Positions 4,245-37,117 of a DNA stretch of 64,000 nucleotides are shown one piece after another. The stretch spans positions 27,375 to 91,374 of the forward strand of contig JADJZB010000006.1 in the NCBI GenBank assembly GCA_016719485.1. Reading direction: 5' to 3'. A model generated the notes under the pieces. The model ran no database searches. It was given only the letters and a program-made list of their open reading frames with translations, and was not told where the DNA came from. Within the stretch, counting starts at the first letter, position 1. Every line of letters starts with the position of its first letter. Both the position numbers and the translations under genes were made by a program. This DNA is from Holophagales bacterium (GTDB lineage Bacteria; Acidobacteriota; Thermoanaerobaculia; UBA5066).

Positions 4245-5149
4245 ATGCGGTGTCTCAAGTCCATTCTCGGTGCAGCGGCTCTCGTCAGCGCCCTCGTCAC
4301 GTTTCCCGCCACGGCCCAGATGGGCGGCGGTGGGGCGAACGGCGGGCCCGGTGACGGCATGACGAACGGGACAGAGGATCTGGTCATTCCTGCGGGTGTT
4401 CGTGGAGAGGGCCGGTTCAGCTCCTTCTTCGTCACGGATCTCTGGATCAAGGCGACCGGGACCGGAACGGCAACGCTCTACTTCCACGCGGCGGACTCGA
4501 CGTCGACCGCCCCAGCCGCCACGGCGACGGTGAACCTCACCCAGCCGATTACGTACCTGCCCGACGTCCTTCAGGCCAACTTCGGTCTTGCTGCGGGCTT
4601 CGGGGCGATCCGCGTAGCGGCGAGCATCCCGATCTCGGCGACCGTGCGCGTCTACAACCAGACCGGGGCGGGTGCCTATGGCCTGGCGTTCATGGGAATG
4701 CCGAGCCGGATGGGAATGACCTCAATGCCCATGGGCGGCTCTTACGGCATGGACGAATACGCGATGTACATGCTCGGGCTCCTTCCGCAGCCCGGTAACC
4801 GCGTGAACGTAAACGTCGTTGCACGGCCTCGACGGGCGCTACCGGCGTCGTCGAGATCGTCGACGCCGACGGATCGACTCCGACGGGCACGGGCGCCAAG
4901 AGCCTTCCATTCACCCTCGCGGGGTACTCTTCGCACCAGTTCAACGACGTCCTTCTGAACGTCCATTCGAAGTTCCCGACCGGTGACGCCGGCCTCCAGA
5001 TCCGCGTGCGGATGAACCAGGGCGGAACCGGAATGGTGATGGCCTACGCCGTCGTGAACGACAACACGACGAATGACGGCTATGTCGTCATGGGCAGCAT
5101 GATGAACGGCGGCCGTGGCATGGGCGGCGGGATGATGGGCGGGCAGTAG
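4245..5149 (+). pseudogene. secreted Met-rich (MGM/MxM repeat) protein, reading frame interrupted near 4815-4830
   Basis: aaggagg RBS, ATG 4245, signal peptide MRCLKSILGAAALVSALVTFPATA; after ...GNRVNVNVV the annotated frame becomes Arg/Ser junk while the -1 frame continues as TASTGATGVVEIVDADGS...MMNGGRGMGGGMMGGQ to stop at 5147-5149. Confidence 0.5.
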
Positions 5150-5204
5150 CCCGGCGATCGGGCGTCCGAAGCCCCTGCCGTTTCGACGAGACATAGGCAG
5201 CGAT

Positions 5205-5236
5205 GAGGGCCTCCCTTCAAGGGAGGCATTTCTCGA
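5205..5236. terminator. bidirectional rho-independent terminator hairpin between convergent genes
   Basis: gcctccc-ttcaa-gggaggc stem-loop followed by T-rich tttctc, located between stop 5149 (+) and stop 5324 (-). Confidence 0.5.
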
Positions 5237-5323
5237 TCTCGTTCGTTACTGCGGCTCCGCAACGCACGGCGGCAATAGCAGCCCTGCATCGAGGCTGAGG
5301 TCCGGCAGGGCGGCTCCTCCCGT

Positions 5324-6259
5324 TCACGGCTCGACGACGACCATCATCGAAAGCCCGGTCGCGCCCGCCGCGCTGTCTCCCACGTGCTGCAGGTTGTGGC
5401 AGTGGAGCATCCACGTTCCTGGGTTGTCCGCTTCGAGGAGGCCGTCGTAGCGCTCCCCGGCGTTGAGCGGCAGCGTGTCCTTCCGGTAGGGCGACGGCAA
5501 CGGGAAGCCGTCCGTCGCCGTGACCGTCCAGCTCATCCCGTGCAAATGCATCGGGTGGACCATGTTTCCGGTGTTCACCATCCGGAAGAGGACCCTCTCG
5601 CCCTTGCGCACGCGGATGTCGGGGACGTTCGGGCCCGTCTTTCCATTGATGAGGAGCGTCCCCGTCATCATGCCCGACGAGGACATCCCGCCCCCCATTC
5701 CCATTCCTCCGCCCATCCCCATGCCGCCGCCCATCGCGCCGGGCATGGAGCCGAGCTCACCGACGACGAGGGAGACCTCGCGGTCCCATTCCTTAGGCGC
5801 GGAAGCCGGCGGCTCGACGACGAGGAGGCCGTAAAGGCCGCGGGCGATCTGAGCAGCGGAGCTGAAGTGAGGGTGGTACCAGTACGTCCCGGGCTCGGGG
5901 GCCGGGAACTCGTACGTGAACCGCGCACCGCGCGCCACGGCCGGTGCGGTGACTCCCGGGACACCGTCCATTCCGTGGGGAACGGGGACCCCGTGCCAGT
6001 GGATCGTCGTCGCCTCGGGGAGCTGGTTCACGAGCGTGACTCTGACGACGTCTCCGGCGGAGACGCGCAGCTCGGGGCCGGGGAGCGTCTGGTTGTACGT
6101 CCAGGCGACGACCTTCTGCCCGGGCGAGATCTCCCAGGTCGAAGCGGCGGCGGTGAGGGTGAACTCGCGCACCGCGCCGAGGGCGGGGGAGGCGGCGGTC
6201 GCGGCGAGAGCCCCGAGCAGGGGGAGCGCCGCGGTCAGGCGGAGTCGGGCGGTCGTCAT
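5324..6259 (-). CDS. small multicopper oxidase (cupredoxin) with Met/Gly-rich insert
   Basis: ATG 6259 with ggag RBS; signal peptide MTTARLRLTAALPLLGALAATAAS; copper ligand motifs HWHG, HPH, HCHNLQH, MHLHG; insert MGGGMGMGGGMGMGGGM typical of Cu(I)-binding CopA/CueO-like oxidases. Confidence 0.8.
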   Translation of the reverse strand: MTTARLRLTAALPLLGALAATAASPALGAVREFTLTAAASTWEISPGQKVVAWTYNQTLPGPELRVSAGDVVRVTLVNQLPEATTIHWHGVPVPHGMDGVPGVTAPAVARGARFTYEFPAPEPGTYWYHPHFSSAAQIARGLYGLLVVEPPASAPKEWDREVSLVVGELGSMPGAMGGGMGMGGGMGMGGGMSSSGMMTGTLLINGKTGPNVPDIRVRKGERVLFRMVNTGNMVHPMHLHGMSWTVTATDGFPLPSPYRKDTLPLNAGERYDGLLEADNPGTWMLHCHNLQHVGDSAAGATGLSMMVVVEP

Positions 6260-13836: not shown

Positions 13837-19234
<5,398 letters not shown>

Positions 19235-19235
19235 C

Positions 19236-20471
19236 TCAGTCCTCCTCCACGAGCGAGGCCTTGGCGAACTCCGACTTCAGGACGAAGCTCCCTTCGGTGG
19301 CGACGACGTCGCCAGCCTTGATGCCGGCGAGAATCTCGGTGAAGCCCTCGAAGCTGTGTCCGACCTCGACGTAGTGCCGTTGGAAGACGCCGGGCTCGAC
19401 CTGAACGAAGACAGTCGAGCGACCCTCCAGCCTCTGGATGGCCGACTGGGGAACGGCCACGATCGGGTGCGCCTCGCTCTGCGGCTTCGGGACATCGACC
19501 TGGGCAGTGACGAAGAGACCCGGGCGGAGCTTCTCCGAACGGTTCTCCACCGTCGCGCGGACCCGGACGCTCCTCGTCTGCGGATCGACGACGCTGCCGA
19601 GGAAATCCACGCGGCCACGGAAGGTCTCCTGGGGATACGCGTCGGTTCTCAGCGTTACAGACAGCCCTTCGTGAAGGAGGGCGAGGTCTTTCTCGTAGGC
19701 ATTGAGGAACACCCAGACGGACCCCAGGTCGGCAATCGTCATGAGCGGCTGCAGCGCCTCGAAGAGGGCGCCGGAGGTCACCTTTCGGTCGATGACGCGG
19801 CCGGCGAAGGGAGCCCGGAGCGTGAGCGTGGCGCCGTCAGCCGCGGAGAGCCTGTGGTCGACAGCGTTGGCTCGCAAACGCGCGATCGTCTCTTCGCTGT
19901 CACCGTAGAGGTGGAGCGTCCTCTCGGCGGAGGCGACGGCGGTCTTCTTCGCCAGGTAGTCGCCTTCCCGAGCCTGGAACTCCCCGGCGCTGATGGCATT
20001 CGCCTCAACGAGCTTCCTGGCTCTCTCGTAGGCGCTGGCCGATACGTTGAAGCTCGACAGCTCCGTCACGAACTCCTCGCGCGTCCGACCGAGGTCGACG
20101 CTCTCGATCACGAGGAGCGGATCGCCGGGCTTTACGCGAGCGCCCAGGTCGACCGGAATCGACGTCACCCGGCCCTTGACGTTCGCGGCGACCAGGAGGA
20201 GGCGGTTCTCGTCGAATCCCACGCTGCCGGTGAGAGAGAGAATGTGTGAGAGGTCGACGATCTGGACCTTCCACGTCGTGATGCCGGCCTCGGCGATCGC
20301 GGCGGCGGTGAGATGGACGCGCTGCGGGGTCGCAGGCTCTTCGACCTTCTCGGCGGTTTTCGCGGGGGCTTCAGGCGCGGGAGCGGCACCGCGGCCCTTG
20401 CCGCAGCCGGCGAGAGCGACGGCGGCGGAAAGGGCGAGGCCGGAAAGGAGGATGGTGGGCTTCCTGTTCAC
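19236..20471 (-). CDS. efflux RND periplasmic adaptor (membrane-fusion) subunit
   Basis: lipoprotein-like signal LALSAAVALAGC; barrel-sandwich/beta-barrel hybrid pattern; stop abuts RND start. Confidence 0.85.
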   Translation of the reverse strand: MNRKPTILLSGLALSAAVALAGCGKGRGAAPAPEAPAKTAEKVEEPATPQRVHLTAAAIAEAGITTWKVQIVDLSHILSLTGSVGFDENRLLLVAANVKGRVTSIPVDLGARVKPGDPLLVIESVDLGRTREEFVTELSSFNVSASAYERARKLVEANAISAGEFQAREGDYLAKKTAVASAERTLHLYGDSEETIARLRANAVDHRLSAADGATLTLRAPFAGRVIDRKVTSGALFEALQPLMTIADLGSVWVFLNAYEKDLALLHEGLSVTLRTDAYPQETFRGRVDFLGSVVDPQTRSVRVRATVENRSEKLRPGLFVTAQVDVPKPQSEAHPIVAVPQSAIQRLEGRSTVFVQVEPGVFQRHYVEVGHSFEGFTEILAGIKAGDVVATEGSFVLKSEFAKASLVEED

Positions 20472-21727
20472 TTGCTATCTCCCGTGGTGTCGTCGTTCGG
20501 GCCGAGGAGCCGCCGAAGCTCCGCGATCGCGGTCGCGAGCTCGAAGCGGGCGCGGATCTCCTCGCGGCGGGCCTCGCGGGCCGTGCGCTGGGCGTCGAGG
20601 AGGTCGAGGAGGGACGTCTCGCCCTCTTCGAAGAGGAGGCGGGCGAGGCGGACGCTCTCGGCGGCGGATGGGAGGAAGTCTCCCTCGAGGGAGGCGACCT
20701 GGACGGCGAGCGTCTCGACGTCCCGGCGGCGTGTCGCGAGGTCGGAGAGGAGCGCGAGCCGCACGCGCTCGGCGTCCGCGGCCCGGAGGCGACTCTCGGC
20801 CTCGGCCCGCGCGACGTCTCCTCGTCGGGCGTTCCAGAGGGGCAGGGTGAGGCCGAGGGCGCCGCCCCATGCCTCGCGATCGAGCTCGTTCTGCCGGAAG
20901 AAGGAGAAGCCGAGGTCCGGGACGCGTCCTCTGCGGGCGCTCGAGAGGAGCGACGAGGCGCGGGCGGCCTCGGCGCGGGCGCGGATCAGCGCCGGGCTTC
21001 GCTCGAGGGCGTCGGGGTGCGCGTCGAGGAGGGCGCGCATGCCGTCGGGGTGCCGTGGAAGCTCGCCCGCGAGGCGAAGCGGGGTGGGGAGAGGCTCTCC
21101 CGCGAGTGTCCTCAGGATGCCCTCCGCGGCGAGCTCCTCCCTGTAGGCGGCGCTCAGCTGACGATCCTGCCGGAGCCACTCGACGCGCGCCTTGATCCGA
21201 TCAACCTCACGCGCCTCGCCGAGCGAGGCACGGCGGGTCATCAGGTCGAGGAGGGAGCGGGCGTCCTCCGCGGAGGCCCGGCCCACCTCGACCTGCGCCC
21301 GCGCGAACAGGAGACGCTCGTACGTGACCTGCGCGTCGAGCTCGAGGCCCCAACGCGTCGCGAGGCCCTCGGCCCGCAGCGCGCGGGCCTCGTGGTCGGC
21401 GGCCTCGATCGACGCCGATCGGGCCGGAAGCCAGGGGATCGACTGCGAGACGGAGAAGCCCTTCTCGGTCTTCGGCGACCCCGAGCCGTCCGCCGCCCGA
21501 CCCTCTCCGAGGCTCAGCTCGAGCGTCGGGTCGGGGAGAAGGCGTGCCGCCTTCGACGCCGCCGCGGCGCTTGCGTCGAGCGCCTGCGCCGACCGCGCGG
21601 ACGGGTGCGACTCCAGGACGAGCCGGACGTAGTCGTCCATCCGGAGCGCGTCCTGCGCGTGTGTTTCGAGGGTGCCGGCCATGGCTGCAAGCGCGAGCAC
21701 CCGGCCGCAATACGATCGAATTCCCAT
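20468..21727 (-). CDS. TolC-family outer-membrane efflux protein (CzcC/CusC-like)
   Basis: signal peptide, two repeated coiled-coil/beta halves typical of OEP family; start overlaps adaptor gene (4 nt). Confidence 0.8.
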   Translation of the reverse strand: MGIRSYCGRVLALAAMAGTLETHAQDALRMDDYVRLVLESHPSARSAQALDASAAAASKAARLLPDPTLELSLGEGRAADGSGSPKTEKGFSVSQSIPWLPARSASIEAADHEARALRAEGLATRWGLELDAQVTYERLLFARAQVEVGRASAEDARSLLDLMTRRASLGEAREVDRIKARVEWLRQDRQLSAAYREELAAEGILRTLAGEPLPTPLRLAGELPRHPDGMRALLDAHPDALERSPALIRARAEAARASSLLSSARRGRVPDLGFSFFRQNELDREAWGGALGLTLPLWNARRGDVARAEAESRLRAADAERVRLALLSDLATRRRDVETLAVQVASLEGDFLPSAAESVRLARLLFEEGETSLLDLLDAQRTAREARREEIRARFELATAIAELRRLLGPNDDTTGDSK

Positions 21728-21955
21728 TCCGTCCTCCTGGAGGCGGCGGGAGAGAGGCGCGCTCCCTGGTCGTGACCGAGGGCCTGGTCCGGAACCGACT
21801 GAATCAGATCCAGACCGCGTGCGTCGTCCCGTCGCGGTGGCGGCGTGCCGGCCGGTATGGCCGACCCGTCAGCGAAGAGGTCCGAGGGGAGTGCCGTCTC
21901 CGGGGCGCGTCGCTTTCTGCGCGACGCTTCCGGAAGGAGCCTCTCTCAGCCGCTG

Positions 21956-22276
21956 CTACGCGAGGGCCGGTTTCGGGACGTGCAGGATATCGCCGACGTG
22001 CCGGGAGGCCGAAGGAACGGACGCCTCGAACGAGGAGCGGCACGGGCGCGAGGCGGGGCTAGCGAGGGCGGGAATCCCCGGCGAGACAGGGTTGACGTGG
22101 GTGCCGCAGGCGCACGTGGCGCACGTCGGCGGGCAGTGGCCGGGACTGGTGTCGTCGGGGCAGGTCTCCACACACTCGGCCCCGAGGAAGAGGGAGCCGA
22201 GGTTCGTCTCCTGGATCAGGAAGACGGCGAAAACCAGAAAGAGGAGTCTTCTCAACACCGGCGCGGAAGATAGCAC
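21956..22276 (-). CDS. small Cys-rich secreted protein (speculative)
   Basis: signal-like VLRRLLFLVFAVFLIQE followed by CVETCPDDTSPGHCPPTCATCACGTH; no RBS verified; lies between czc operon and tRNA-like repeats. Confidence 0.25.
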   Translation of the reverse strand: MLSSAPVLRRLLFLVFAVFLIQETNLGSLFLGAECVETCPDDTSPGHCPPTCATCACGTHVNPVSPGIPALASPASRPCRSSFEASVPSASRHVGDILHVPKPALA

Positions 22277-22347
22277 ACGGTCCGCTCAGTCTTCGAAAGC
22301 GGGAGCCGACGGATCCCGCAGAGCCCTGTTCCGGGCACGCGAGGAAG

Positions 22348-22505
22348 GGTATCTATTTTCGTTGTCCCATGCTATCCGTAGATACCCGCGGAAGTGAAGT
22401 GTGCCAGCGTAAATCTATGGTATATGGCTAGTTGCGGCTGTCCGCAGACGGAGGTGCCGAATGGGGTTCAAGGGGTCGCGAGTTCGAATCTCGCCGTCCC
22501 GACCA
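22348..22505 (+). repeat. tRNA-3'-end-like element, copy a (~158 nt; homologous to 26649..26805)
   Basis: ends with atggggttcaaggggtcgcgagttcgaatctcgccgtcccgacca = T-arm (gcgag/ttcgaat/ctcgc) + 7-nt acceptor 3' strand + ACCA; ~70% identical to copy b over ~110 nt upstream of the core. Confidence 0.6.
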
Positions 22506-22589
22506 TCTTTAAATCACTCACAGGAAATGGTTTACAGGTGTCCACCGATGCTCCGTTCGGTGCTGCTGGTATCCGGTGGCCGGATCAGG

Positions 22590-22680
22590 ATGTCCGTAGC
22601 TGTCTGCGGTTTCGCCGTTTAGATACCCATCTCGGGTGAGGCGATTCAAGGAGTCGCGGGTTCACCTGGTCCGACCGGGT
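22590..22680 (+). repeat. degenerate additional copy of the tRNA-like element
   Basis: gatacccatctcggg...gcgattcaaggagtcgcgggttcacctggtccgaccgggtc resembles the core of copies a/b/c with many substitutions. Confidence 0.35.
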
Positions 22681-22893
22681 CGCACTCCGGGTATATCCAG
22701 GACGTAGAAGCGATCAGCCAGAGTCGCTTTCGACATCGGAGCTGTTCTGCCTGGCTGCCGCTGGCTCCGCGTCCTACGCCCAAGCGCAGGTACGCTGTTG
22801 TCAGAGCCAAGGCGTCTGATCCAACAGCTTCAAGAGGTTCCTGTTGGCCTCGTGAGTCGTCCGGAGGAAGAACAGGTGGCGAGCGAATTCGGC

Positions 22894-23304
22894 CTACCTC
22901 CAGTTGCGGTCCATGAGCCCGTGGTCCTCTACGTCGTCACGCGCGCCCTCGACGCCAGTACCGATAGGCTTCGATCCACTCGGTGCCGCTGGGCGGGCGG
23001 GCAGGCAGGGGCAGGTCGAGGATGGGGATTCTCTGCCGGGGGGGCCCGCGACACAGAGGGCAACGATGCCGTCGTCCGTCAACTCCACTCGCTTGACCGA
23101 AACCGCCACGCCAAGAATTTCCGTCGAGAAGGGGAGGGCGAGGTGATCCTCTATCAGCGTGTAGAGCCCCGACTGCTGCTCGTCGTCGTTGTACGTATCG
23201 ACGGTCGCCTCGGCGACCAGCGCATCGAGCTGTGGGCCTGAGAGACGCACCCGTCGCCCGGCGGGGCGAGCGGGGGCCGGCCGGACCGTCTGGCGACTCT
23301 TCAT
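22894..23304 (-). CDS. hypothetical small protein translationally coupled to the primase-helicase gene
   Basis: ATG 23304 overlaps the upstream stop (ATGA); LSGPQLDALVAEATVDTYNDDEQQSGLYTLIEDHLALPFSTEILGVAVSVKRVELTDDGIVALCV reads as genuine protein; C-terminus crosses a C7 homopolymer so the end is uncertain; antisense ORF 22798..23241 rejected. Confidence 0.4.
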   Translation of the reverse strand: MKSRQTVRPAPARPAGRRVRLSGPQLDALVAEATVDTYNDDEQQSGLYTLIEDHLALPFSTEILGVAVSVKRVELTDDGIVALCVAGPPGRESPSSTCPCLPARPAAPSGSKPIGTGVEGARDDVEDHGLMDRNWR

Positions 23305-25802
23305 GGCGAGGACCCGGCGGGAATCGCCCTGGCACCGATCTCTTCTTCTCCGCGTGTTGAGTCAGGGCCAGAGGTTTCGGCCACTCTGTACCCGATCTCT
23401 CGGTAGCCGCGCATCCTGCGTTCGAACATACGGGCGAGGACCGGAACCTGGCGGTCGACGTAGTCGACGATGCGGGCTTCAGTCTTCCCCGGGAGCGGGC
23501 GGTGGAGCCGACCAGCGTACTGGACGAGCGTGCCCCTCCAGGAAATCGGCATGGCGAGGAACAGCGTGTCGAGCCGCGCGTCGTCGAAGCCTTCGCCGAC
23601 GTAACGGCCGGTCGCCATGAGGAGACGCGGTTCATCCGGCGGAATGGCGCGAAGCCTTGCCATCGACTCTCGCCGTTGCTTTGCCCCGGTTCCACCGCGG
23701 AGTACGACGACGTGCGGGCAGGCCGCGGCAAGGCGGGCGGCGAGAAGGTCCAGATGATCTCGGCGTTCCGTGAGGACGAGTGGTGTGCGTCCCTCGCCGA
23801 GCGCGAGCGTCACGTCGCGAACGATGGCGTCGTTTCTCGCTTCGTCCCGGGCCAGCGCACCGTAGAGGCTCTGGATGGAAGGATCGGTGTCCTGTGCGGA
23901 AGAAGTGAACGACGTTTCGCGAACGACCAGGGTCTTCGTCAGTGAGTCCGCCGACTCAGCCGGCTTGCGGCCCACGTCGAACCGGACGGGCCCGATCTGC
24001 ATGTGGAGGATCGGCTGGTGGCCGTCCCGACGCTTGGCCGTGGCCGTCAGCCCCACGACGAACTTCGCCCGGATTCCCGAGAGCACTCGTTCGAACGAGA
24101 CGGCCGGGATGTGGTGACACTCGTCCACGATGACGTGGCCGTAGCCGCCGACGATCTCGTCGATCTCGTCGCCCCGGACGAGGCTCTGGATCATGGCGAC
24201 GTCCAGGTGCCCGTTCGGCTTTCGGACGCCCCCTCCGACTCGACCGATCTCTCTCGGATCGACGCCGAGGTGCAGGGACAGCTGCTCCACCCACTGGTCC
24301 AGGAGCGGCTGGCGGTGGACGAGTACGACCGCCGAGCGGGCCCGGGCGGCGATCAGGTACGAGCCGACGACCGTCTTCCCCGATCCCGGCGGGGCCACGA
24401 AGACTCCGGTGTCGTGGGCCAGCAGCATCTGGGCTGCCTCCTCCTGCCGGGGAGTGAGGCTGCTGGCGAACGACACGTCGAGCATCGGCCCTTGGTGGCG
24501 CTCGTCCTCGAGGTCCAGCCTCACGGCGTGCCCGCCGAGAAGGGGGCGGAGGTCATCGAGGCAGCCTCTCGGCAGCGAGACGTGGCGAGGGTGATCCTCC
24601 GCACAGCTGATCACACGAGGCGTGAGTGCCGTCGAGAGGCGCAGTCCCTGCTTCTTGAAGAACTCCGGATTCTGGAAAGCGGCAAGACGCTTGATCTGGT
24701 TGAGCAGCGGGGAGGGGAGCCCCTCCTTCGCGACGAAGAGCCGGTTTGCGAGGACGGCGCGAACTTCAGTCGGGAGCGGTCCGAGGAGAAGGCGAGCGGT
24801 CGATCGCCGGGACGGCGTCTGGCGCCACGGCCGAGCGGCATCCTCATCCTCCCCGTCCTCGGTGGTCCGGACTCCGACGACCAGCCCTTTCCTCGCGGCC
24901 TCCGAGGCAATCGTCTCCACGTAGTCCCGGCTCATCCGATTGACCCCGAGGAGGTATGCCCACTGGTCCGGGTGGGGCTCGAGGTTCGCGTCGAGAAAGA
25001 CTGTGTTTCCCTGAGTGCGGGGATGGCGCTGGAGCGGAAGGGCGATCAGGTTGCCGAATCCGCCCCGGGGCATCGTGTCCTGGCTCGGGAAGAGGCGGTC
25101 GTACGACGCCATGCTCAGCTCGTGCCTGCGGGACATCGTCTCGGTGATCAGGAACGAGGCCATCCGCCGGGCTGCGGAGGCGGGGACGGGCGCAGAGAAG
25201 AAGAGCCAGGCATGGGCCCCGTTGCCGGACCGCGACCGTTCGACGGCAATCGGAACTCCCAGCTCTCCGCACGTGGCGGCGAAGGCCGAAACATCGGCAG
25301 CCCATTCGGCCTCGTCGAAATCGGCGGCGACAAACCAGCAGGTCTCGTCGGCGAGCAGGGGATAGCAGCCGATCACGTGACGACCCTGGAGGTGATCGAG
25401 GAGCACCTGGTCGGACATCGGGAGAAAGGCCTGGCTCGGGCAGTCGCCACAACGGACGCGCGGCTTCTCGCAGACTCCTCGCACCCAGTCGTTCCGGCAA
25501 GTTGGGGAGTACCCCTTCTTGCCCGTCTTCGGGCTGACCCAGAGCTTGGGGAACACGTCCTCCCGGCCACGGAAGAGACTCCGGAAGAGGCCAACCTTCT
25601 CTTGCGCGTTCAGCCGACCGGCGGGAGCCGGCGTCGCGACGATGGTGCGGCCTTCGCTGTCATCCTCTGCGCGAAGGGCGTTCCGGAGGTCCTCGACTTG
25701 CTTCTCGAGTGCGTCCCGGCGTCTGCCGAGGTCGGCGATCTCCGCTTCTGCGGCCTCGATGGCAATGGTGAGAGCTGCCCGTCGGTGACCGCGGGCGTTC
25801 AT
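23301..25802 (-). CDS. archaeo-eukaryotic primase-polymerase (Prim-Pol) domain fused to SF2 DExH helicase
   Basis: real start MNARGHRRAAL at 25802 overlapping upstream stop; N-terminal Cys cluster CRNDWVRGVCEKPRVRCGDC, AEP motifs VAADFDEAE and RSRSGNGAHAWLFF; helicase Walker A APPGSGKT, DECH box VIVDECHH, TAT GLTATAKRRDG, motif VI VQYAGRLHR. Confidence 0.75.
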   Translation of the reverse strand: MNARGHRRAALTIAIEAAEAEIADLGRRRDALEKQVEDLRNALRAEDDSEGRTIVATPAPAGRLNAQEKVGLFRSLFRGREDVFPKLWVSPKTGKKGYSPTCRNDWVRGVCEKPRVRCGDCPSQAFLPMSDQVLLDHLQGRHVIGCYPLLADETCWFVAADFDEAEWAADVSAFAATCGELGVPIAVERSRSGNGAHAWLFFSAPVPASAARRMASFLITETMSRRHELSMASYDRLFPSQDTMPRGGFGNLIALPLQRHPRTQGNTVFLDANLEPHPDQWAYLLGVNRMSRDYVETIASEAARKGLVVGVRTTEDGEDEDAARPWRQTPSRRSTARLLLGPLPTEVRAVLANRLFVAKEGLPSPLLNQIKRLAAFQNPEFFKKQGLRLSTALTPRVISCAEDHPRHVSLPRGCLDDLRPLLGGHAVRLDLEDERHQGPMLDVSFASSLTPRQEEAAQMLLAHDTGVFVAPPGSGKTVVGSYLIAARARSAVVLVHRQPLLDQWVEQLSLHLGVDPREIGRVGGGVRKPNGHLDVAMIQSLVRGDEIDEIVGGYGHVIVDECHHIPAVSFERVLSGIRAKFVVGLTATAKRRDGHQPILHMQIGPVRFDVGRKPAESADSLTKTLVVRETSFTSSAQDTDPSIQSLYGALARDEARNDAIVRDVTLALGEGRTPLVLTERRDHLDLLAARLAAACPHVVVLRGGTGAKQRRESMARLRAIPPDEPRLLMATGRYVGEGFDDARLDTLFLAMPISWRGTLVQYAGRLHRPLPGKTEARIVDYVDRQVPVLARMFERRMRGYREIGYRVAETSGPDSTRGEEEIGARAIPAGSSP

Positions 25803-26293
25803 CCGGCGACGTCTTCTCCCGCCAGTGAGAGGACGCGTTTTCGAATGTCGGGCGACATCCACATCCCGGAGGCAGCGAGAAGGTCCACGAGCGGAGCTAC
25901 GGAAGGGACGAGGCGAGCCTTCTTGGCCTCGAGCAGGACACGGAGGGTGCCCCAGGTGGTCAGGCCGGCGGCGCGGGCCGTCCGCCGCGCGAGCGCATCG
26001 TCGAGAAGGAGGATTCGCTGAGGGTTTTCGAGGGCGAGCGCCATCGCGGCGAGCTCTCCGGCTCCGAGATCGAGAGTCAGCCACTCGGAGGGGGTCGATT
26101 TCGGGTCGACGGTCTCCAGCCAGGCCAGGTTGTCCGTGTCTGGCACCTCGAACCCGAGTGCCCGCCCTTCGCCGAGCTCCCTCAGGACCGCCGACGGAAC
26201 CCAGACCGACCCGAAGAGCTGGTCAAGCCAGCCGAGAGCTCCGATCCGACCCAGGTAGAGAAGGGGAGAGGTGTTAGTGATCGAGCCTGGCAT
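25799..26293 (-). CDS. DUF3368-type PIN-like nuclease domain protein (putative toxin)
   Basis: MPGSITNTSPLLYLGRIGALGWLDQLFGSVWVPSAVLRELG pattern typical of DUF3368; overlaps upstream ORF by 20 nt and the downstream primase-helicase by ATGA. Confidence 0.55.
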   Translation of the reverse strand: MPGSITNTSPLLYLGRIGALGWLDQLFGSVWVPSAVLRELGEGRALGFEVPDTDNLAWLETVDPKSTPSEWLTLDLGAGELAAMALALENPQRILLLDDALARRTARAAGLTTWGTLRVLLEAKKARLVPSVAPLVDLLAASGMWMSPDIRKRVLSLAGEDVAG

Positions 26294-26534
26294 CGCCTTC
26301 GAGCTCGGTAAGCTCGGCTTCCAGCGGGAACGTCTTGTAGCGCTTCAGCTCGTAGAGGAACTCGACCCGGCCCATTCCAGCGAGCTCTGCCGCTCGGCCC
26401 GAGGAGAGCCTGCCCAGTTCATAGAGCTTGACCGCCGCGAGGACCTGCAGCTCCCTCGCGAAAGACACCTCGTCGGTCTTCTCGGATAGAAGGACCTTTT
26501 CCGGAACCGCGACAACTACCGACCGTGACGCCAT
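26274..26534 (-). CDS. UPF0175-family antitoxin-like protein
   Basis: 86 aa, SFARELQVLAAVKLYELGRLSSGRAAELAGMGRVEFLYELKRY typical of UPF0175 partners of DUF3368. Confidence 0.5.
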   Translation of the reverse strand: MASRSVVVAVPEKVLLSEKTDEVSFARELQVLAAVKLYELGRLSSGRAAELAGMGRVEFLYELKRYKTFPLEAELTELEGDARLDH

Positions 26535-26648
26535 CTCTTTGGACTCCCATGGCGATTGTCTCTCAAGAGCGCTGCCCGATCCTGTCGGATCCTTCCCGCG
26601 GGGGGCCGAACGCAGGTTTCAGAAGCGTCGTTCATTGAGAGCCTCAAG

Positions 26649-26805
26649 GTATCTACTTTCGTTGTCCGATGCCGTCTGCGGATAGTCCGGGCGGCATCTC
26701 ACCCAAGCGTAAATTCATGATATATGGCCAGTTACAGCTGTCAGTGGACGGAGGTGTCGCATGGGGTTCAAGGGGTCGCGAGTTCGAATCTCGCCGTCCC
26801 GACCA
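26649..26805 (+). ncRNA. tRNA-3'-end-like structured RNA element, copy b (followed by intrinsic terminator)
   Basis: same 45-nt T-arm/acceptor/ACCA core as copy a plus ~110 nt of homologous upstream sequence; followed by gccgccggg-aa-cggcggc + TTTTT; canonical 5' acceptor strand not found by eye. Confidence 0.45.
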
Positions 26806-26825
26806 TTGATTCCAAAGGATTTAGA

Positions 26826-26851
26826 CGCCGCCGGGAACGGCGGCGTTTTTG
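26826..26851 (+). terminator. rho-independent terminator after tRNA-like element b
   Basis: gccgccggGAAcggcggc hairpin followed by gttttt. Confidence 0.6.
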
Positions 26852-26858
26852 CGCCTGT

Positions 26859-27560
26859 CTACTTCTCTCTGACCGACCTCGTCACCTGACCCGTCCCTGC
26901 GAGGGCGCGAAGTCGCTGAAGCAGGATCGGCACCCGCGCCTGGCTTCCGCTATCCGACGGGAGATGACCCGGAAGCGCCGAGAGGAAACGCTCCTCGGTC
27001 AAGAACCTCCCGAGTTCGATGCCGAGAAACGAGCGAAGGTCATCGGACGAGGCCGAGACCTCCTCCACGATCCCGTCGCGGCCGTCGACGACGCTGACGA
27101 AGTCCTCGAGGTCGTGGCTGGAGGCGTAGTCGCCTCGCCCCCTTCCCAGGAACGCCTCCAGCTTGGTGGCCAGGAAGGCCGGCGGCGAGACCACCGCGAT
27201 CTCGACGCCGCTCGGAAGCCGGACGGTCCGCTGCGTTCGCAGCGCTTCCGGGTACCAGCGGTTTGCGAAGCCGAGCACCGAAGGATCGATCGGCATGACG
27301 TCGAGGAGAGTCTCGCCGAAGGTCCATCGGCAGATCGGAGCCCCAGCGCTCTGATCGTGGCGGAATCCGCGCTCCGTCATCTCCCTCTCGAGCGCGAAGT
27401 ACGCGGACCGGTCTGGTGTCTCGACGATCACGTCGACGTCCCGCGTAGCTCGGATCGGCGCGGCGGCAGGATCCGTGATCAGGAGTCCCGTGGCACACCC
27501 CCCGAGGAAGACCATGCTGTGGCGCAGGGGCCCGAGGGCCTCGGCGATACGCTCGAGCAT
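26859..27560 (-). CDS. nucleotidyltransferase-fold protein (AbiEii/DUF1814-like putative toxin)
   Basis: real start MLERIAEALGP at 27560 (upstream ORF part is GC junk); FLGGCATGLL, DVDVIVETPD motifs of minimal nucleotidyltransferase; preceded by wHTH gene. Confidence 0.5.
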   Translation of the reverse strand: MLERIAEALGPLRHSMVFLGGCATGLLITDPAAAPIRATRDVDVIVETPDRSAYFALEREMTERGFRHDQSAGAPICRWTFGETLLDVMPIDPSVLGFANRWYPEALRTQRTVRLPSGVEIAVVSPPAFLATKLEAFLGRGRGDYASSHDLEDFVSVVDGRDGIVEEVSASSDDLRSFLGIELGRFLTEERFLSALPGHLPSDSGSQARVPILLQRLRALAGTGQVTRSVREK

Positions 27561-27580
27561 GGCGAGGTTGGGGTCCGGGG

Positions 27581-28093
27581 TCACCTCAGCCGCTCCTCGA
27601 GGAGTCGCGTGGCCATCTCGCGCTCGCGAGCACGTCCTGCCCGCAGGGCATCGAACAGAGCGAGAAGCTCGTACAAGGCGGGGTCTTCCAGCGCGGCGCC
27701 CGGTGCGGAAGGAATGAGCGGCGCGAGGCTCGGTCCACGCGCGGTGCCGTTCGGGTGAGGCCAGACGGGAGGCGGTTCGGAGGCGTCCGCGAGGAGTTCC
27801 TTCAGCGGCGAGGCGGCGTGCGCGGTCGGGATTCCCCTCGCCAACTCGCCCCGAAACGCCGGGAAGGAGTACTTCGCTCCGTGGACGAGAAACTCCCGGA
27901 GCGCCTCGGCCCGGGGTCTGACGCGCAGTCCTCCTGGCGGCAGCAGGCCGGCCGCGACCGCCCGCTTCACCGCGCCGTGAGCCTCCGACACGCTCATCCC
28001 CAGGGACCGGGCGAGGAGCGGGTAGGTCCAAGCCTGGTCGCGTCCGACCCAGAGCTTGAGAGCGACGAGGAGATCCTGCGGTTTCAGGGCCAT
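27581..28093 (-). CDS. winged-HTH transcriptional regulator (AbiEi-like putative antitoxin)
   Basis: MALKPQDLLVALKLWVGRDQAWTYPLLARSLGMSVSEAHGAVKRAVAAGLL wHTH; immediately upstream of nucleotidyltransferase gene. Confidence 0.4.
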   Translation of the reverse strand: MALKPQDLLVALKLWVGRDQAWTYPLLARSLGMSVSEAHGAVKRAVAAGLLPPGGLRVRPRAEALREFLVHGAKYSFPAFRGELARGIPTAHAASPLKELLADASEPPPVWPHPNGTARGPSLAPLIPSAPGAALEDPALYELLALFDALRAGRAREREMATRLLEERLR

Positions 28094-28452
28094 GGAGGGA
28101 GTGTATTCGTGATTCGCGAAACGCGAAAGGGCGAGAACTCGAACCGGTTCTATTGGCCCGTCGCGAGGCCGCGTCTCGCAGGAACCCGATGCGATCCTCA
28201 CGACCCTCGCCGCCAGTGTCGATACGCCTCAATCCACACCGCCCCGCCGGGAGGAAGATCGGGGAGACTCGGTGAGCCTTGTGTACGAAACGTCGGGGAT
28301 CGCAGGCGGAAGTCAACAGTTTGTTCTTCGCCGGGAACCACCCGAGAACGAACGGCGAATCGGAGGTGCTGCGAGGCGAGGAGGTGTCCACACTACTGTC
28401 CAAAACGGCCGGACCCATCGGGCTCCCGGCGTCGAAAGCGCTCCTTTTCCCC

Positions 28453-28497
28453 ATGGGGTTCAAGGGGTCGCGGGTTCGAATCTCGCCGTCCCGACCA
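28453..28497 (+). repeat. tRNA-3'-end-like core, copy c (one substitution: gcggg instead of gcgag in T-stem)
   Basis: atggggttcaaggggtcgcgggttcgaatctcgccgtcccgacca; no upstream homology to copies a/b. Confidence 0.55.
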
Positions 28498-28608: not shown

Positions 28609-28953
28609 TCAGTCGAGGGAGTCGCGAAGCCGACGAAGTCGCGACGCGAGAACGGGCAGGTCGCTGACGACGATCATCCAGACGAGCTCGAGGTCCACCG
28701 CGAAGTACCCGTGGACGACCCGGTTCCTGAGGCCGACGACCCGCGGCCATTCCAGGTCCGGTGTGCTTGCCCTGAACTCATCCGGCACGTGAGCGGCTGC
28801 TTCTCCGAGAATCTCGAGGTTCCTCACGACGGCGTCGGAGGTCTTCTCGTCGGCGAGGAATGCGGGCTGGTCCATTCTCGCGACATACCGCTCGATCCGC
28901 TCCGTCGCCTCGAGCATGTCGTCGAGCAGGAGGCGGACGGAGCGTCTAGACAT
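28609..28953 (-). CDS. hepT: HepT-like (DUF86/HEPN) RNase toxin
   Basis: HEPN Rx4-6H-type motif region RNRVVHGYF, DUF86 pattern VRNLEILGEAA; overlaps mntA by 8 nt. Confidence 0.65.
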   Translation of the reverse strand: MSRRSVRLLLDDMLEATERIERYVARMDQPAFLADEKTSDAVVRNLEILGEAAAHVPDEFRASTPDLEWPRVVGLRNRVVHGYFAVDLELVWMIVVSDLPVLASRLRRLRDSLD

Positions 28954-29239
28954 GAAGAGCTTCGAGCCGGATAGCGTCCATGTGACGTGGACGCAGCGCC
29001 CGCGTTGAGATGAGGTCGACCGGTCGGCCGAGGGCCTCTTCGAGCTTGTCGGCGAGCGTGACGAAATCGAGTCCGATCGCGGGATCTACTTCGACGAGGA
29101 TGTCGATGTCGCTTCGGTCGGTCTCGTCGCCCCGCGCGAACGAGCCGAAGAGGGCCAGGTCGCGCACGCCGAAGCGACGTCCGAGGTCGGGCTTCATTGC
29201 CCGGAGGGTCGAGATGATCTCCTCGCGGGATCGAACCAT
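28946..29239 (-). CDS. mntA: MntA-type minimal nucleotidyltransferase antitoxin
   Basis: LALFGSFARGDETDRSDIDILVEV (GSxxRGxxxxxSDxD) nucleotidyltransferase motif; 97 aa. Confidence 0.65.
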   Translation of the reverse strand: MVRSREEIISTLRAMKPDLGRRFGVRDLALFGSFARGDETDRSDIDILVEVDPAIGLDFVTLADKLEEALGRPVDLISTRALRPRHMDAIRLEALHV

Positions 29240-34774: not shown

Positions 34775-35545
<771 letters not shown>

Positions 35546-35574
35546 TCACTTCATCCCTGCTCGCAGCCGTGATG

Positions 35575-36693
35575 TCACTTCAGGTTCGTGCCGAAGAACA
35601 CTGTGATCTTGTCGAACGGAATCACGTCCATCCGGTCGTAGAGATCAGTGTGGCTGGCGTCCGGGATGATCATGAGCTCCTTCGGCTCCGCCGCAGCCGC
35701 GTAGGCGGTTTCGCTGAAATAGCGCGAGTGGGCCTTTTCGCCGTGGATGAACAGAACCGGGCGCGGCGAAATCTCCGCGATGTAGGTCAAGAGCGGCATG
35801 TTCATGAACGACAGCGGGGTCGTGAGCGTCCACGAGCCGTGCGAGTTCACCGCCCGCGGATGGAAGCCCCGCGGCGTCCTGTAGTAGTCGTGATAGTCCA
35901 CCAGGAACTGCGCTTCGCCGCCTTTCAGCTCGTTGGAGACCGGGCCATACGCCGGAGCTCCCTTTTCCGCATCCTGCCAACGCTGCCGGCCCAGCTGCTC
36001 CAGTGCTTGCGTGCGCTGTTCGAGGGTCACACTGTCGTTGTAGCCCCTGGACATGACGCGCGTCATGTCGTACATGGTGCTGACCACGACCGCCTTCACG
36101 CGCTTGTCCACGGCGGCTGCATTCAATGCCATGCCACCCCAGCCGCAAATGCCGATGATGCCAATGCGCCCGCGGTCCACATTGGGTTGCAGGCCGAGAA
36201 AGTCCACGGCGGCACTGAAATCCTCCGTGTTGATGTCTGGTGAGGCCACATTCCGCGGTTCACCACCACTTTCCCCCGTGTAGGACGGATCGAAAGCCAG
36301 CGTGACGAATCCGCGTTCCGCCATGGTCTGCGCATAAAGGCCCGACGACTGTTCCTTGACCGCGCCGAAGGGGCCACCAACGGCAATCGCTGCAAGCTTG
36401 CCGCTGGTACTTTTCGGCTGGTACAGGTCAGCCGATAGGGTGATGCCGTAGCGGGTCTTGAAAGTGACTCTCTGATGGTCCACCTTCTCGTTTCTTGAAA
36501 AGGTCTTGTCCCACGTTGCGACTCGTGGCATGGCGGCCTCCTTGTTCGCGGCGTGGAGTGCCTGCCCCGAACCCGACTGGCAGGCCGCCAGCACTGTTGT
36601 GAAAGCGAGAGCCACGCTCAAAGCAAATCTGCCGCTCGGCAAGCTTCCTGGCGAAGCGTCCATCTGCGCGGCTTCTGGAATGGGTCGGTTCAT
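35575..36693 (-). CDS. alpha/beta hydrolase-fold lipoprotein (dienelactone hydrolase/CocE-like)
   Basis: lipobox LAAC after signal peptide; GICGWGG nucleophile elbow; region is visibly lower GC than flanks. Confidence 0.6.
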   Translation of the reverse strand: MNRPIPEAAQMDASPGSLPSGRFALSVALAFTTVLAACQSGSGQALHAANKEAAMPRVATWDKTFSRNEKVDHQRVTFKTRYGITLSADLYQPKSTSGKLAAIAVGGPFGAVKEQSSGLYAQTMAERGFVTLAFDPSYTGESGGEPRNVASPDINTEDFSAAVDFLGLQPNVDRGRIGIIGICGWGGMALNAAAVDKRVKAVVVSTMYDMTRVMSRGYNDSVTLEQRTQALEQLGRQRWQDAEKGAPAYGPVSNELKGGEAQFLVDYHDYYRTPRGFHPRAVNSHGSWTLTTPLSFMNMPLLTYIAEISPRPVLFIHGEKAHSRYFSETAYAAAAEPKELMIIPDASHTDLYDRMDVIPFDKITVFFGTNLK

Positions 36694-36727
36694 GGTCGGC
36701 TCCTTCTGTTCGATGCTCGGGTTCGAC

Positions 36728-37117
36728 TCATCTCAGCCTTCGGCGGACCGGCGACCTGCCGGTCTCCTCCTCGACGGGTTCGATCGTCACTCTCAGCGGC
36801 CCGGGGCGGTTCAGAACCTCGAGGCCGGAGTCGATTCGTCCCAGCTTGATCAGCCCGGCCGAATGGCGGAAGTCCTCGTAGAAGATGGCCAGATTCCCCC
36901 AGGGCGAGTAGTAGGTGAGATCCCCCACGACGGGATCGATGCCCGGGGGAGCACCTTCCGTGCTCAGCCTCCTGGGCAGATCGCTGATCTTCTCCGTGGC
37001 GGCATAGTCCGTGAGCGTCAGCTCGAGCGGGAGCTGGGAGGCGAAGTCCCGGGCCGTGTCGTTGTCGGCGAGGGTGGCCGCGATCGACCCGCCTTCGATG
37101 CTCATGCGGATCCTCAC
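36728..37117 (-). CDS. cyclophilin-like fold (DUF3830-type) protein
   Basis: ~125 aa, ATLADNDTARDFASQLPLELTLTDYAATEKI... pattern of cyclophilin-like small proteins. Confidence 0.45.
   Translation of the reverse strand: MRIRMSIEGGSIAATLADNDTARDFASQLPLELTLTDYAATEKISDLPRRLSTEGAPPGIDPVVGDLTYYSPWGNLAIFYEDFRHSAGLIKLGRIDSGLEVLNRPGPLRVTIEPVEEETGRSPVRRRLR

Follow-up and report, generated by a model that had tools for sequence, protein, structure and literature searches.

Cis-mobilizable elements (CIMEs) and their accretion with integrative and conjugative elements (ICEs) are known, for example, from the ICESt1/ICESt3 family of Streptococcus thermophilus. Tyrosine integrases that target tRNA genes use an element attachment site (attP) carrying the 3′ part of the gene, and integration regenerates the gene at one end of the element and leaves a displaced fragment at the other (PMC4383910). 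The anticodon loop, sublocation ‘A’ in the classes of Williams 2002, is the commonest crossover site, used by 2083 of the 3919 islands of the Islander collection, among which 125 tandems have at least two units and 4 at least three, a tandem being accepted only with an integrase in each unit (PMC4383910). Here we analyze a stretch of 64,000 nucleotides (nt) from a Holophagales bacterium (contig JADJZB010000006.1), hereafter the window, within which all coordinates below are positions, and in which a 45-nt string resembling the 3′ end of a tRNA recurs three times. With a probability of roughly 0.8, the three repeats are displaced 3′ fragments of a tRNA-Pro(GGG) gene that lie at the junctions between integrative elements stacked head to tail. 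The locus is of a known kind, a tandem island array at a tRNA gene, and its novelty is limited to an attachment-site (att) family from the poorly studied Acidobacteriota, a compact PrimPol-helicase element and the placement of candidate defence genes in a turnover hotspot.

The repeat, ATGGGGTTCAAGGGGTCGCG(A/G)GTTCGAATCTCGCCGTCCCGACCA, lies on the + strand at 22461-22505 (copy a), 26761-26805 (copy b) and 28453-28497 (copy c), each time with 0 mismatches to the R-degenerate pattern, and 100 dinucleotide-preserving shuffles contain a mean of 0.00 copies (maximum 0). Copies a and b are identical, and c is one base off, with an A-to-G change in the 5′ strand of the T stem. Copies a and b form the 3′ ends of homologous elements of 158 nt (22348-22505 and 26648-26805), which agree in 128 of 159 aligned columns, or in 83 of 114 over the upstream 113 nt alone; the flank upstream of copy c is unrelated to these upstream arms. 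Additionally, a terminator-like hairpin with a T-run (26826-26850, + strand) follows b only among the three copies, as part of a recurrent flank (‘AAAGGAYTTAG + hairpin’) that has similar counterparts 3′ of the core in seven other loci (L129, L130, L132, L134, L138, L142 and L094). The three direct copies, the extension of two of them to 158 nt and the single terminator had all been described in the initial annotation, and all are borne out.

The identity of the repeat comes from its last 31 nt, which were scanned against one genome per species and are found in the genomes of at least 120 species. A sequence-pattern test shows that in 106 of the 120 loci listed the match ends a gene with a tRNA-Pro 5′ acceptor strand, the others being 11 fragments, 1 intact gene with a one-base insertion and 2 matches cut by the locus end, and ARAGORN, run on a sample of 33 of these 120 loci, calls in 29 of them a tRNA-Pro (anticodon GGG) whose end coincides with the match. 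The intact tRNA-Pro gene of locus L082 reads CGGGACGTGGCGCAGCCTGGTAGCGCACTTGA-ATGGGGT-TCAAG-GGGTC-GCGAG-TTCGAAT-CTCGC-CGTCCCG-A-CCA, and its last 47 nt are identical to copy a; therefore, the 45-mer is positions 32-76 of tRNA-Pro(GGG), comprising the anticodon loop, the 3′ strand of the anticodon stem, the variable loop, the T arm, the 3′ acceptor strand, the discriminator and CCA. In line with this, the 5′ acceptor strand predicted from the repeat by the initial annotation, [C/U]GGG[A/G][C/U]G, is the strand found in intact genes (CGGGACG or CGGGGCG), and it is missing from the window, as had been noted. The accompanying suggestion of a non-canonical or transfer-messenger RNA (tmRNA)-like target does not hold, because the target is a canonical tRNA-Pro(GGG). 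The identity shared by a, b and c starts at the anticodon loop (ATGGGGT), as it does in most of the 11 displaced tRNA-Pro(GGG) fragments among the 120 species’ genomes listed (L010, L011, L021, L028, L030, L046, L063, L077, L080, L081 and L094). Since these 11 loci span Pseudomonadota, Actinomycetota and Acidobacteriota, tRNA-Pro(GGG) is a widely used integration target.

In the 64-kb window, ARAGORN detects 0 tRNA and 0 tmRNA genes, Rfam returns 0 matches at the gathering threshold, and the 32-nt 5′ half of tRNA-Pro is absent with up to 3 mismatches allowed. As the window holds neither an intact tRNA nor a tRNA-Pro 5′ half, all three copies are displaced 3′ fragments, and the ARAGORN and Rfam checks that had been proposed are blank because only such fragments are present. 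Two other identities were considered and rejected. The tmRNA identity, suggested by short strings shared by eye with E. coli tmRNA, was dropped once the 31-mer proved to be the tRNA-Pro(GGG) end; the tmRNA and permuted-tmRNA models of Rfam align to the T arm alone, at 10-13 bits versus a threshold of 47, and ARAGORN is blank. A group I intron or split tRNA, with the upstream 113 nt as the 3′-terminal part of an anticodon-loop intron, finds no 5′ exon within 64 kb, no Rfam match at the gathering score and no covariation.

Related contigs reveal that the units delimited by the repeat, here called X (left of a), Y (between a and b) and Z (between b and c), are present in some relatives and absent from others, with breakpoints at the repeat. 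Specifically, contig L142 carries X, a single 158-nt element and Z with no Y, aligning on the left up to copy a and on the right from copy b on, and in L132 X is joined by a mercury-resistance segment (MerA, MerR) and a single complete element, directly after which comes HepT/MNT, with neither Y nor Z. L134, which is 98% identical across X, has a terminator flank after the core and then, encoded on the opposite strand, a tyrosine integrase of 413 aa. Left ends like that of Y follow a tRNA-Pro fragment or core in the window, L131 and L127, the upstream sequences being unrelated where compared (window versus L131), and a Y-like right end, consisting of PIN, UPF0175, arm and core, occurs in L143 with a different downstream flank. 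The independent assemblies L121 and L122 both contain the segment from b through Z to c, together with neighbouring genes (5.9 kb, 99.3% identity). With regard to the other contents of these contigs, the mercury-resistance segment has a truncated arm on one side and a complete 158-nt element on the other, both in L132 (5046-8469) and in L133 (reverse strand, two arm copies). The integrase of L134 (162-1403) reads towards the core, and between the two a direct repeat, ACGCGCAACCT, is present twice, probably representing arm sites of another integrase family.

Conservation of the 113 nt that precede copies a and b extends well beyond the window. The arm of copy a (22348-22460, + strand) starts with GGTATCTA, or opens with GGGTATCTA if the preceding G at 22347 is counted, holds the inverted TAGATACCC and is identical to the arm in L134; that of copy b (26648-26760, + strand), at the right end of Y, includes …GGAGGTGTCGCATGGGG…, and its arrangement of PIN/UPF0175, arm and core is also that of L143. 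A junction pattern search finds the arm on 17 metagenome contigs, with a single 5′ boundary and varied flanks, and gives no match in IMG/VR. Across these 17 contigs and the Acidobacteriota genome L075, homology starts sharply at GGGTATCTA and ends at CCA with different flanks on both sides, the sharp 5′ boundary being seen in at least 14 loci. L075 has an intact tRNA-Pro in direct orientation, 1.8 kb upstream of the arm, and its 158-nt element is decaying, with both the anticodon and the variable loop mutated. The sole gene between the two is a sodium:alanine symporter gene on the opposite strand (4399-5814), and no integrase is present there. Truncated arms also occur: that of L133 ends after the AATGG of the anticodon loop, and L132 keeps only the first ~45 nt of one. 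In six contigs (L128, L132, L133, L134, L136 and L142), the gene order of the right part of X, namely P-type ATPase, resistance-nodulation-division (RND) pump, membrane-fusion protein, outer-membrane factor and 106-aa protein, is followed by the 158-nt element, at 75-99% amino acid identity, and the arm is therefore a stable right end of X.

The conservation of these 158 nt is not that of a structured RNA. Single-sequence folding of the two elements stays at the level of shuffled sequences (z = -0.08 and -0.47), RNAalifold gives a covariation term of -0.74 kcal/mol for a 14-sequence alignment, and the only compensatory changes fall in the tRNA-derived T stem and, in three related sequences, in one further pair. 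Likewise, one side of the GGGTATCTA/TAGATACCC inverted repeat varies with no matching change on the other. Apart from that one pair, neither a stable fold nor covariation is found outside the tRNA-derived part. We interpret the upstream 113 nt as an attP P arm, that is, a conserved DNA site rather than an RNA gene. The 158-nt ‘elements’ of the initial annotation are accordingly an attachment-site arm plus core; they are not independent RNA genes at unrelated loci without accessory genes, the outcome it had named as weakening an attachment-site interpretation, which thus passes this test. The heptamer GTATCTA/TAGATAC occurs 5 times in the window versus about 1.4 expected in 64 kb, and 4 of the 5 occurrences sit in arms (22349, 22379, 22620 and 26649). 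GTATCTA (motifs GGTATCTA/TAGATACC), which also bounds the 158-nt element, is a candidate arm-type site, to which the integrase would bind. Separately, a sigma-70-like promoter match (CTGACA, 16 nt, TATCAT; 10/12) lies inside the arm of copy b at 26717-26744 on the - strand, facing into the UPF0175, PIN and PrimPol genes; this stretch ranks with the most conserved of the arm, and it has a likeness to an integration host factor site as well. A role of the arm in driving cassette genes is not claimed, as gene orientation beside the arm is inconsistent in other loci.

On the other side of copy a, a conserved P′ arm (22506-22690, + strand) forms the left end of Y. It contains a hairpin, TAGATACCC at 22619-22627 and the sequence …ACCATCTTTAAATCACTCACAGG…, and the ~190 nt 3′ of copy a are conserved in L131, in L127 (after the second tRNA fragment), in L135 and in L139. 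Within this arm, the degenerate repeat copy reported at 22641-22676, here block d (GCGATTCAAGGAGTCGCGGGTTCACC; repeat families D4/D8), does exist, although decay alone does not account for it. Four other loci retain the block GCGATTCAAGGAGTCGCGGGTTC at an unchanged position, and block d is therefore a maintained piece of the arm on the other side of the core and not a random relic; it could either function as a core-type site or represent an old duplication that has travelled with the arm. Element-derived arms thus flank copy a on the left and on the right, which is the attP-like configuration expected at the joint of two tandem elements of one att family.

An integrase can be linked to this attachment site through other genomes. 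In L116, L035 and L019, a tyrosine integrase of 424-437 aa (PF00589, about 1e-33) follows an intact tRNA-Pro, the first ~30 nt after the tRNA are homologous to those after copy a (87-88% over 76 nt, core included), and GTATCTA occurs twice in tandem between the tRNA and the integrase. Integrases occupy the homologous position in these three loci and in L134. Taken together, the tRNA-Pro(GGG) identity of the repeat, the presence/absence of units at the repeat and the integrase beside intact tRNA-Pro genes make serial site-specific insertion at a tRNA 3′ end, as initially proposed, the best-supported interpretation.

We propose the following course of events. The attP of an incoming element would carry a tRNA copy that spans the anticodon loop through CCA, and a crossover in the anticodon loop would rebuild the gene at the left end from the element’s copy, displacing the host’s original 3′ part to the right end, behind the element’s P arm. 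Repetition of this step would yield the order tRNA-Pro, X, a, Y, b, Z, c, with the left end of X, the integrase of X and the intact tRNA placed beyond the left edge of the window. Under this scheme, Y would be movable only by an integrase supplied in trans, and Z would end in an arm of a different att family; Y or Z may be mobile at present.

Compared with the tandem arrays of Islander, the locus is alike in that its three + strand fragments are in direct orientation and identical or nearly identical to the tRNA 3′ part, start at the recognised ‘A’ sublocation and delimit several units stacked at one tRNA gene. Unlike those arrays, Y and Z carry no integrase of their own, which Islander requires of each unit, and the intact tRNA gene is not in the window.

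Several observations weigh against a stack of integrative elements at tRNA-Pro(GGG). A regenerated, intact tRNA gene, expected at the opposite end of the array, is missing from the 64-kb window; tblastn with three integrases against the window yields a best E of 0.46 and no integrase remnant; and Pfam finds no integrase among the scanned open reading frames (ORFs) of Y, Z or the visible part of X. Extension of the window to the left by exact-protein look-ups of four left-end ORFs gave no match, and L144, the one homologue’s contig recovered, is not collinear and has no tRNA. On the right, the history of Z is not clean: in L094, an arm of the type found at copy c, with a tRNA-Pro fragment, lies upstream of Z, in L142 part of such an arm lies downstream of Z without a core, and the right flank of copy c lacks the terminator flank present in L132. 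The junction from X through a to Y is seen on one molecule in the window only, L134 of the same species having another right side, and the shared core of 38-47 nt could have led an assembler to join strain variants.

In one alternative, the 158-nt module is a portable site for stacking and exchanging integrase-less cassettes, such as copper efflux, mercury resistance and PrimPol plus toxin-antitoxin, at tRNA-Pro(GGG), with an integrase acting in trans; we consider this unlikely. Likewise unlikely is an array working as an integron-like platform, in which the module is a portable recombination site ending many cassettes and served by one trans-acting integrase, with the first module as a resident landing pad and not the end of a classical island. 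Such a platform would account for the variety of cargo that the arm ends at 72-92% identity (blastn), including X, the mer segment of L132 and L133, Y and the unrelated genes of L127, L137 and L139, for the small size of Y and Z and their lack of integrases, for the mer segment of L132 and L133, with its truncated arm at one end and complete 158-nt element at the other, and for the second core-like block retained in the P′ arm. However, variable cargo beside an attR is normal in ordinary island families, and the truncated arms resemble decay. Integrases with related flanks do adjoin intact tRNA-Pro genes, whereas neither a dedicated integrase nor a common promoter of a platform is found, and orientation beside the arm is mixed, with MerR in L132 and an 872-aa gene in L137 reading towards it. 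If this alternative were true, uncultured Acidobacteriota would possess an integron-like cassette array built on a tRNA-derived site, and the second core-like block of the P′ arm would be functional. A genuine integron, with an IntI integrase, attI, Pc and cassettes that end in attC hairpins, was rejected as a candidate: no integrase is present in the window, the repeats are tRNA-derived and not attC sites, and the inverted repeat of the arm is not kept by compensation.

An assembly artefact, in which strain variants were joined at the shared tRNA fragment and fewer tandem insertions exist on any one chromosome, is improbable as an explanation of part of the array. It would fit L134, which with 98% identity in X and an identical arm enters a different island after the core, and the tendency of public contigs of this population, which is present in runs such as ERR712372/ERR712377 and SRR24032800, to break at the repeats, L123 beginning inside copy b and stopping inside block d. 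Nevertheless, the reproduction of b-Z-c at 99.3% identity in two independent assemblies, the occurrence of the X-arm-core junction type in six contigs and that of the arm-core-P′-Y junction type in L131 argue against it, and a chimeric join at a would leave the nature of the repeats unchanged. Finally, the reading of the 158-nt elements as structured RNA genes in their own right (a small tRNA-like RNA, part of a tmRNA, or a split-tRNA 3′ exon with part of an intron) has next to no chance of being right: the perfect T arm, the ACCA end, the terminator after b, the strong conservation across contigs and the sub-threshold Rfam tmRNA matches (12.0 and 12.6 bits versus 47 for gathering) are set against blank ARAGORN and Rfam results, folding at shuffled level, the minute covariation term and the uncompensated inverted repeat described above, the lack of both a 5′ acceptor strand and a D arm, and copies that are mutated in the anticodon and variable loop (L075) or truncated at arbitrary points (L132, L133).

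Within the stack of integrative elements that we favour, Y measures exactly 4300 bp from the crossover point in a to that in b, and all of its genes are on the - strand. Its main gene (23304-25802; gene call from L123) encodes an 832-aa fusion of a PrimPol of the archaeo-eukaryotic primase (AEP) type and a superfamily 2 helicase, with matches to PF22548 AEP-TOTE (9.6e-96), ResIII (1.3e-19), PADLOC PrimPol (1.5e-88) and the helicase and primase families of PHROG; it is likely the replication protein of Y. Beside it lies a small gene of no significant family (22894-23304), a 136-aa ORF (117 aa as called in L123) with homologues beside the helicase gene in L127 and L131. A PIN-like toxin gene (DUF3368; 25799-26293; PF11848 1.9e-11; PADLOC PDC-S70 1.8e-43) and a UPF0175 antitoxin gene (26274-26534; PF03683 8.1e-22), the exact product of which occurs on 17 metagenome contigs, complete the unit, and the pair is the PADLOC candidate PDC-S70 by profile match. 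The claim that the segments between copies carry toxin- or defence-type genes is thus confirmed, with PIN/UPF0175 in Y and PDC-M21 in Z. A TOTE conflict system, which is defined by TPR, OB, TBP and effector components in PMC12458937 (citing Aravind et al. 2022), was rejected for Y, since only the AEP-TOTE domain matches and the neighbours are the 136-aa protein and PIN/UPF0175, with no TPR-OB/TBP partners.

Y is bounded by the conserved P′ arm on the left and the P arm on the right with a copy of the core at each end, and it therefore qualifies as a cis-mobilizable element, which is defined by complete att sites at its two ends and the lack of a recombination module. Y could still be moved by an integrase acting in trans, for which the only evidence is indirect, namely Y-like ends beside a core in other contigs, in L131 behind a different upstream sequence. 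Distant relatives of its PrimPol-helicase on IMG/VR contigs lie 2-3 kb from tyrosine integrases, and Y fits a derivative of an element that combined an integrase with a replicase. Its likeness to CIMEs also extends to its small size and its tandem position with a larger element of the same att family. Unlike in those systems, no helper integrase, conjugation module or excision product is seen here, the host is an uncultured Holophagales-like acidobacterium, and we know of no described CIME that has a PrimPol-helicase as Y does. P4-like satellites and phage-inducible chromosomal island (PICI)-like satellites similarly combine a primase-helicase with a small island at a tRNA gene, and the distant IMG/VR homologues beside tyrosine integrases weakly recall them. 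Unlike these satellites, Y has no integrase and no capsid-redirecting or regulatory genes, and the alpha primase of P4 is of the DnaG/Toprim type, whereas the primase of Y is of the AEP (PrimPol) type.

Z spans 1692 bp from b to c and consists of the two-gene candidate defence system PDC-M21, the genes of which are adjacent and co-oriented on the - strand with a 4-nt overlap: PDC-M21A (27581-28093; 170 aa; PADLOC 1.1e-38; 91-95% amino acid identity in L094 and L142) and PDC-M21B (26859-27584; 241 aa; PADLOC 3.3e-64; gene call in L121). Upstream of copy c, 28266-28452 (+ strand) holds an arm of a second, unrelated family with repeated TGTCCA motifs, homologous to an arm in L094 and partly to L142. 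In L094, a Holophagales genome 94.6% identical across Z, an AbiEi/AbiEii pair borders this type of arm. Judging by L094 and L142, Z and c have undergone rearrangement or deletion. The T stem of copy c, GCGGG/CTCGC with a G-T pair, is a hybrid of the variants GCGGG/CCCGC and GCGAG/CTCGC of intact genes, from which one might speculate about a crossover or conversion inside the core. Immediately to the right of the array lies a HepT/MNT toxin-antitoxin pair (28609-29239, - strand; Pfam; PADLOC PDC-S09), followed by a CdsA-like gene. As in defence islands, candidate systems (PDC-M21, PDC-S70 and PDC-S09) cluster here at a mobile-element hotspot; unlike there, membership is by profile matches only. 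Further right, in the region 34775-36728, an aldo/keto reductase ORF matches only profile positions 143-290 of 291 and seems truncated at the N terminus, and it is followed by ~1.2 kb with no confident ORF and a lower G+C content (0.62-0.65).

X is at least 22 kb long, its left end being outside the window. The right part is the metal-resistance cluster introduced above (13837-22276, - strand; Pfam), which abuts the first arm. Copper and other metal genes reach leftwards to about position 600 and include, by Pfam, a heavy-metal-binding protein, a cytochrome c, a multicopper oxidase, a sigma-54 two-component system and ResB/CcsA. The N terminus of the P-type ATPase (13837-16164, - strand) matches the P-II nitrogen-regulator fold (PF00543, residues 14-94, 3.1e-10), at the site where a heavy-metal-binding domain is usual.

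These findings explain an apparent orphan ‘tRNA-like’ repeat as an ordinary, well-understood footprint, and the locus is therefore not to be pursued as a new RNA. They define the attachment site, with its core, both arms and the candidate motif GTATCTA, of tRNA-Pro(GGG) islands in Holophagales-like Acidobacteriota from wastewater and soil metagenomes, and they delimit a compact 4.3-kb integrase-less PrimPol-helicase element. Additionally, they place the candidate defence systems PDC-M21 and PDC-S70 in a hotspot with visible strain-to-strain turnover.

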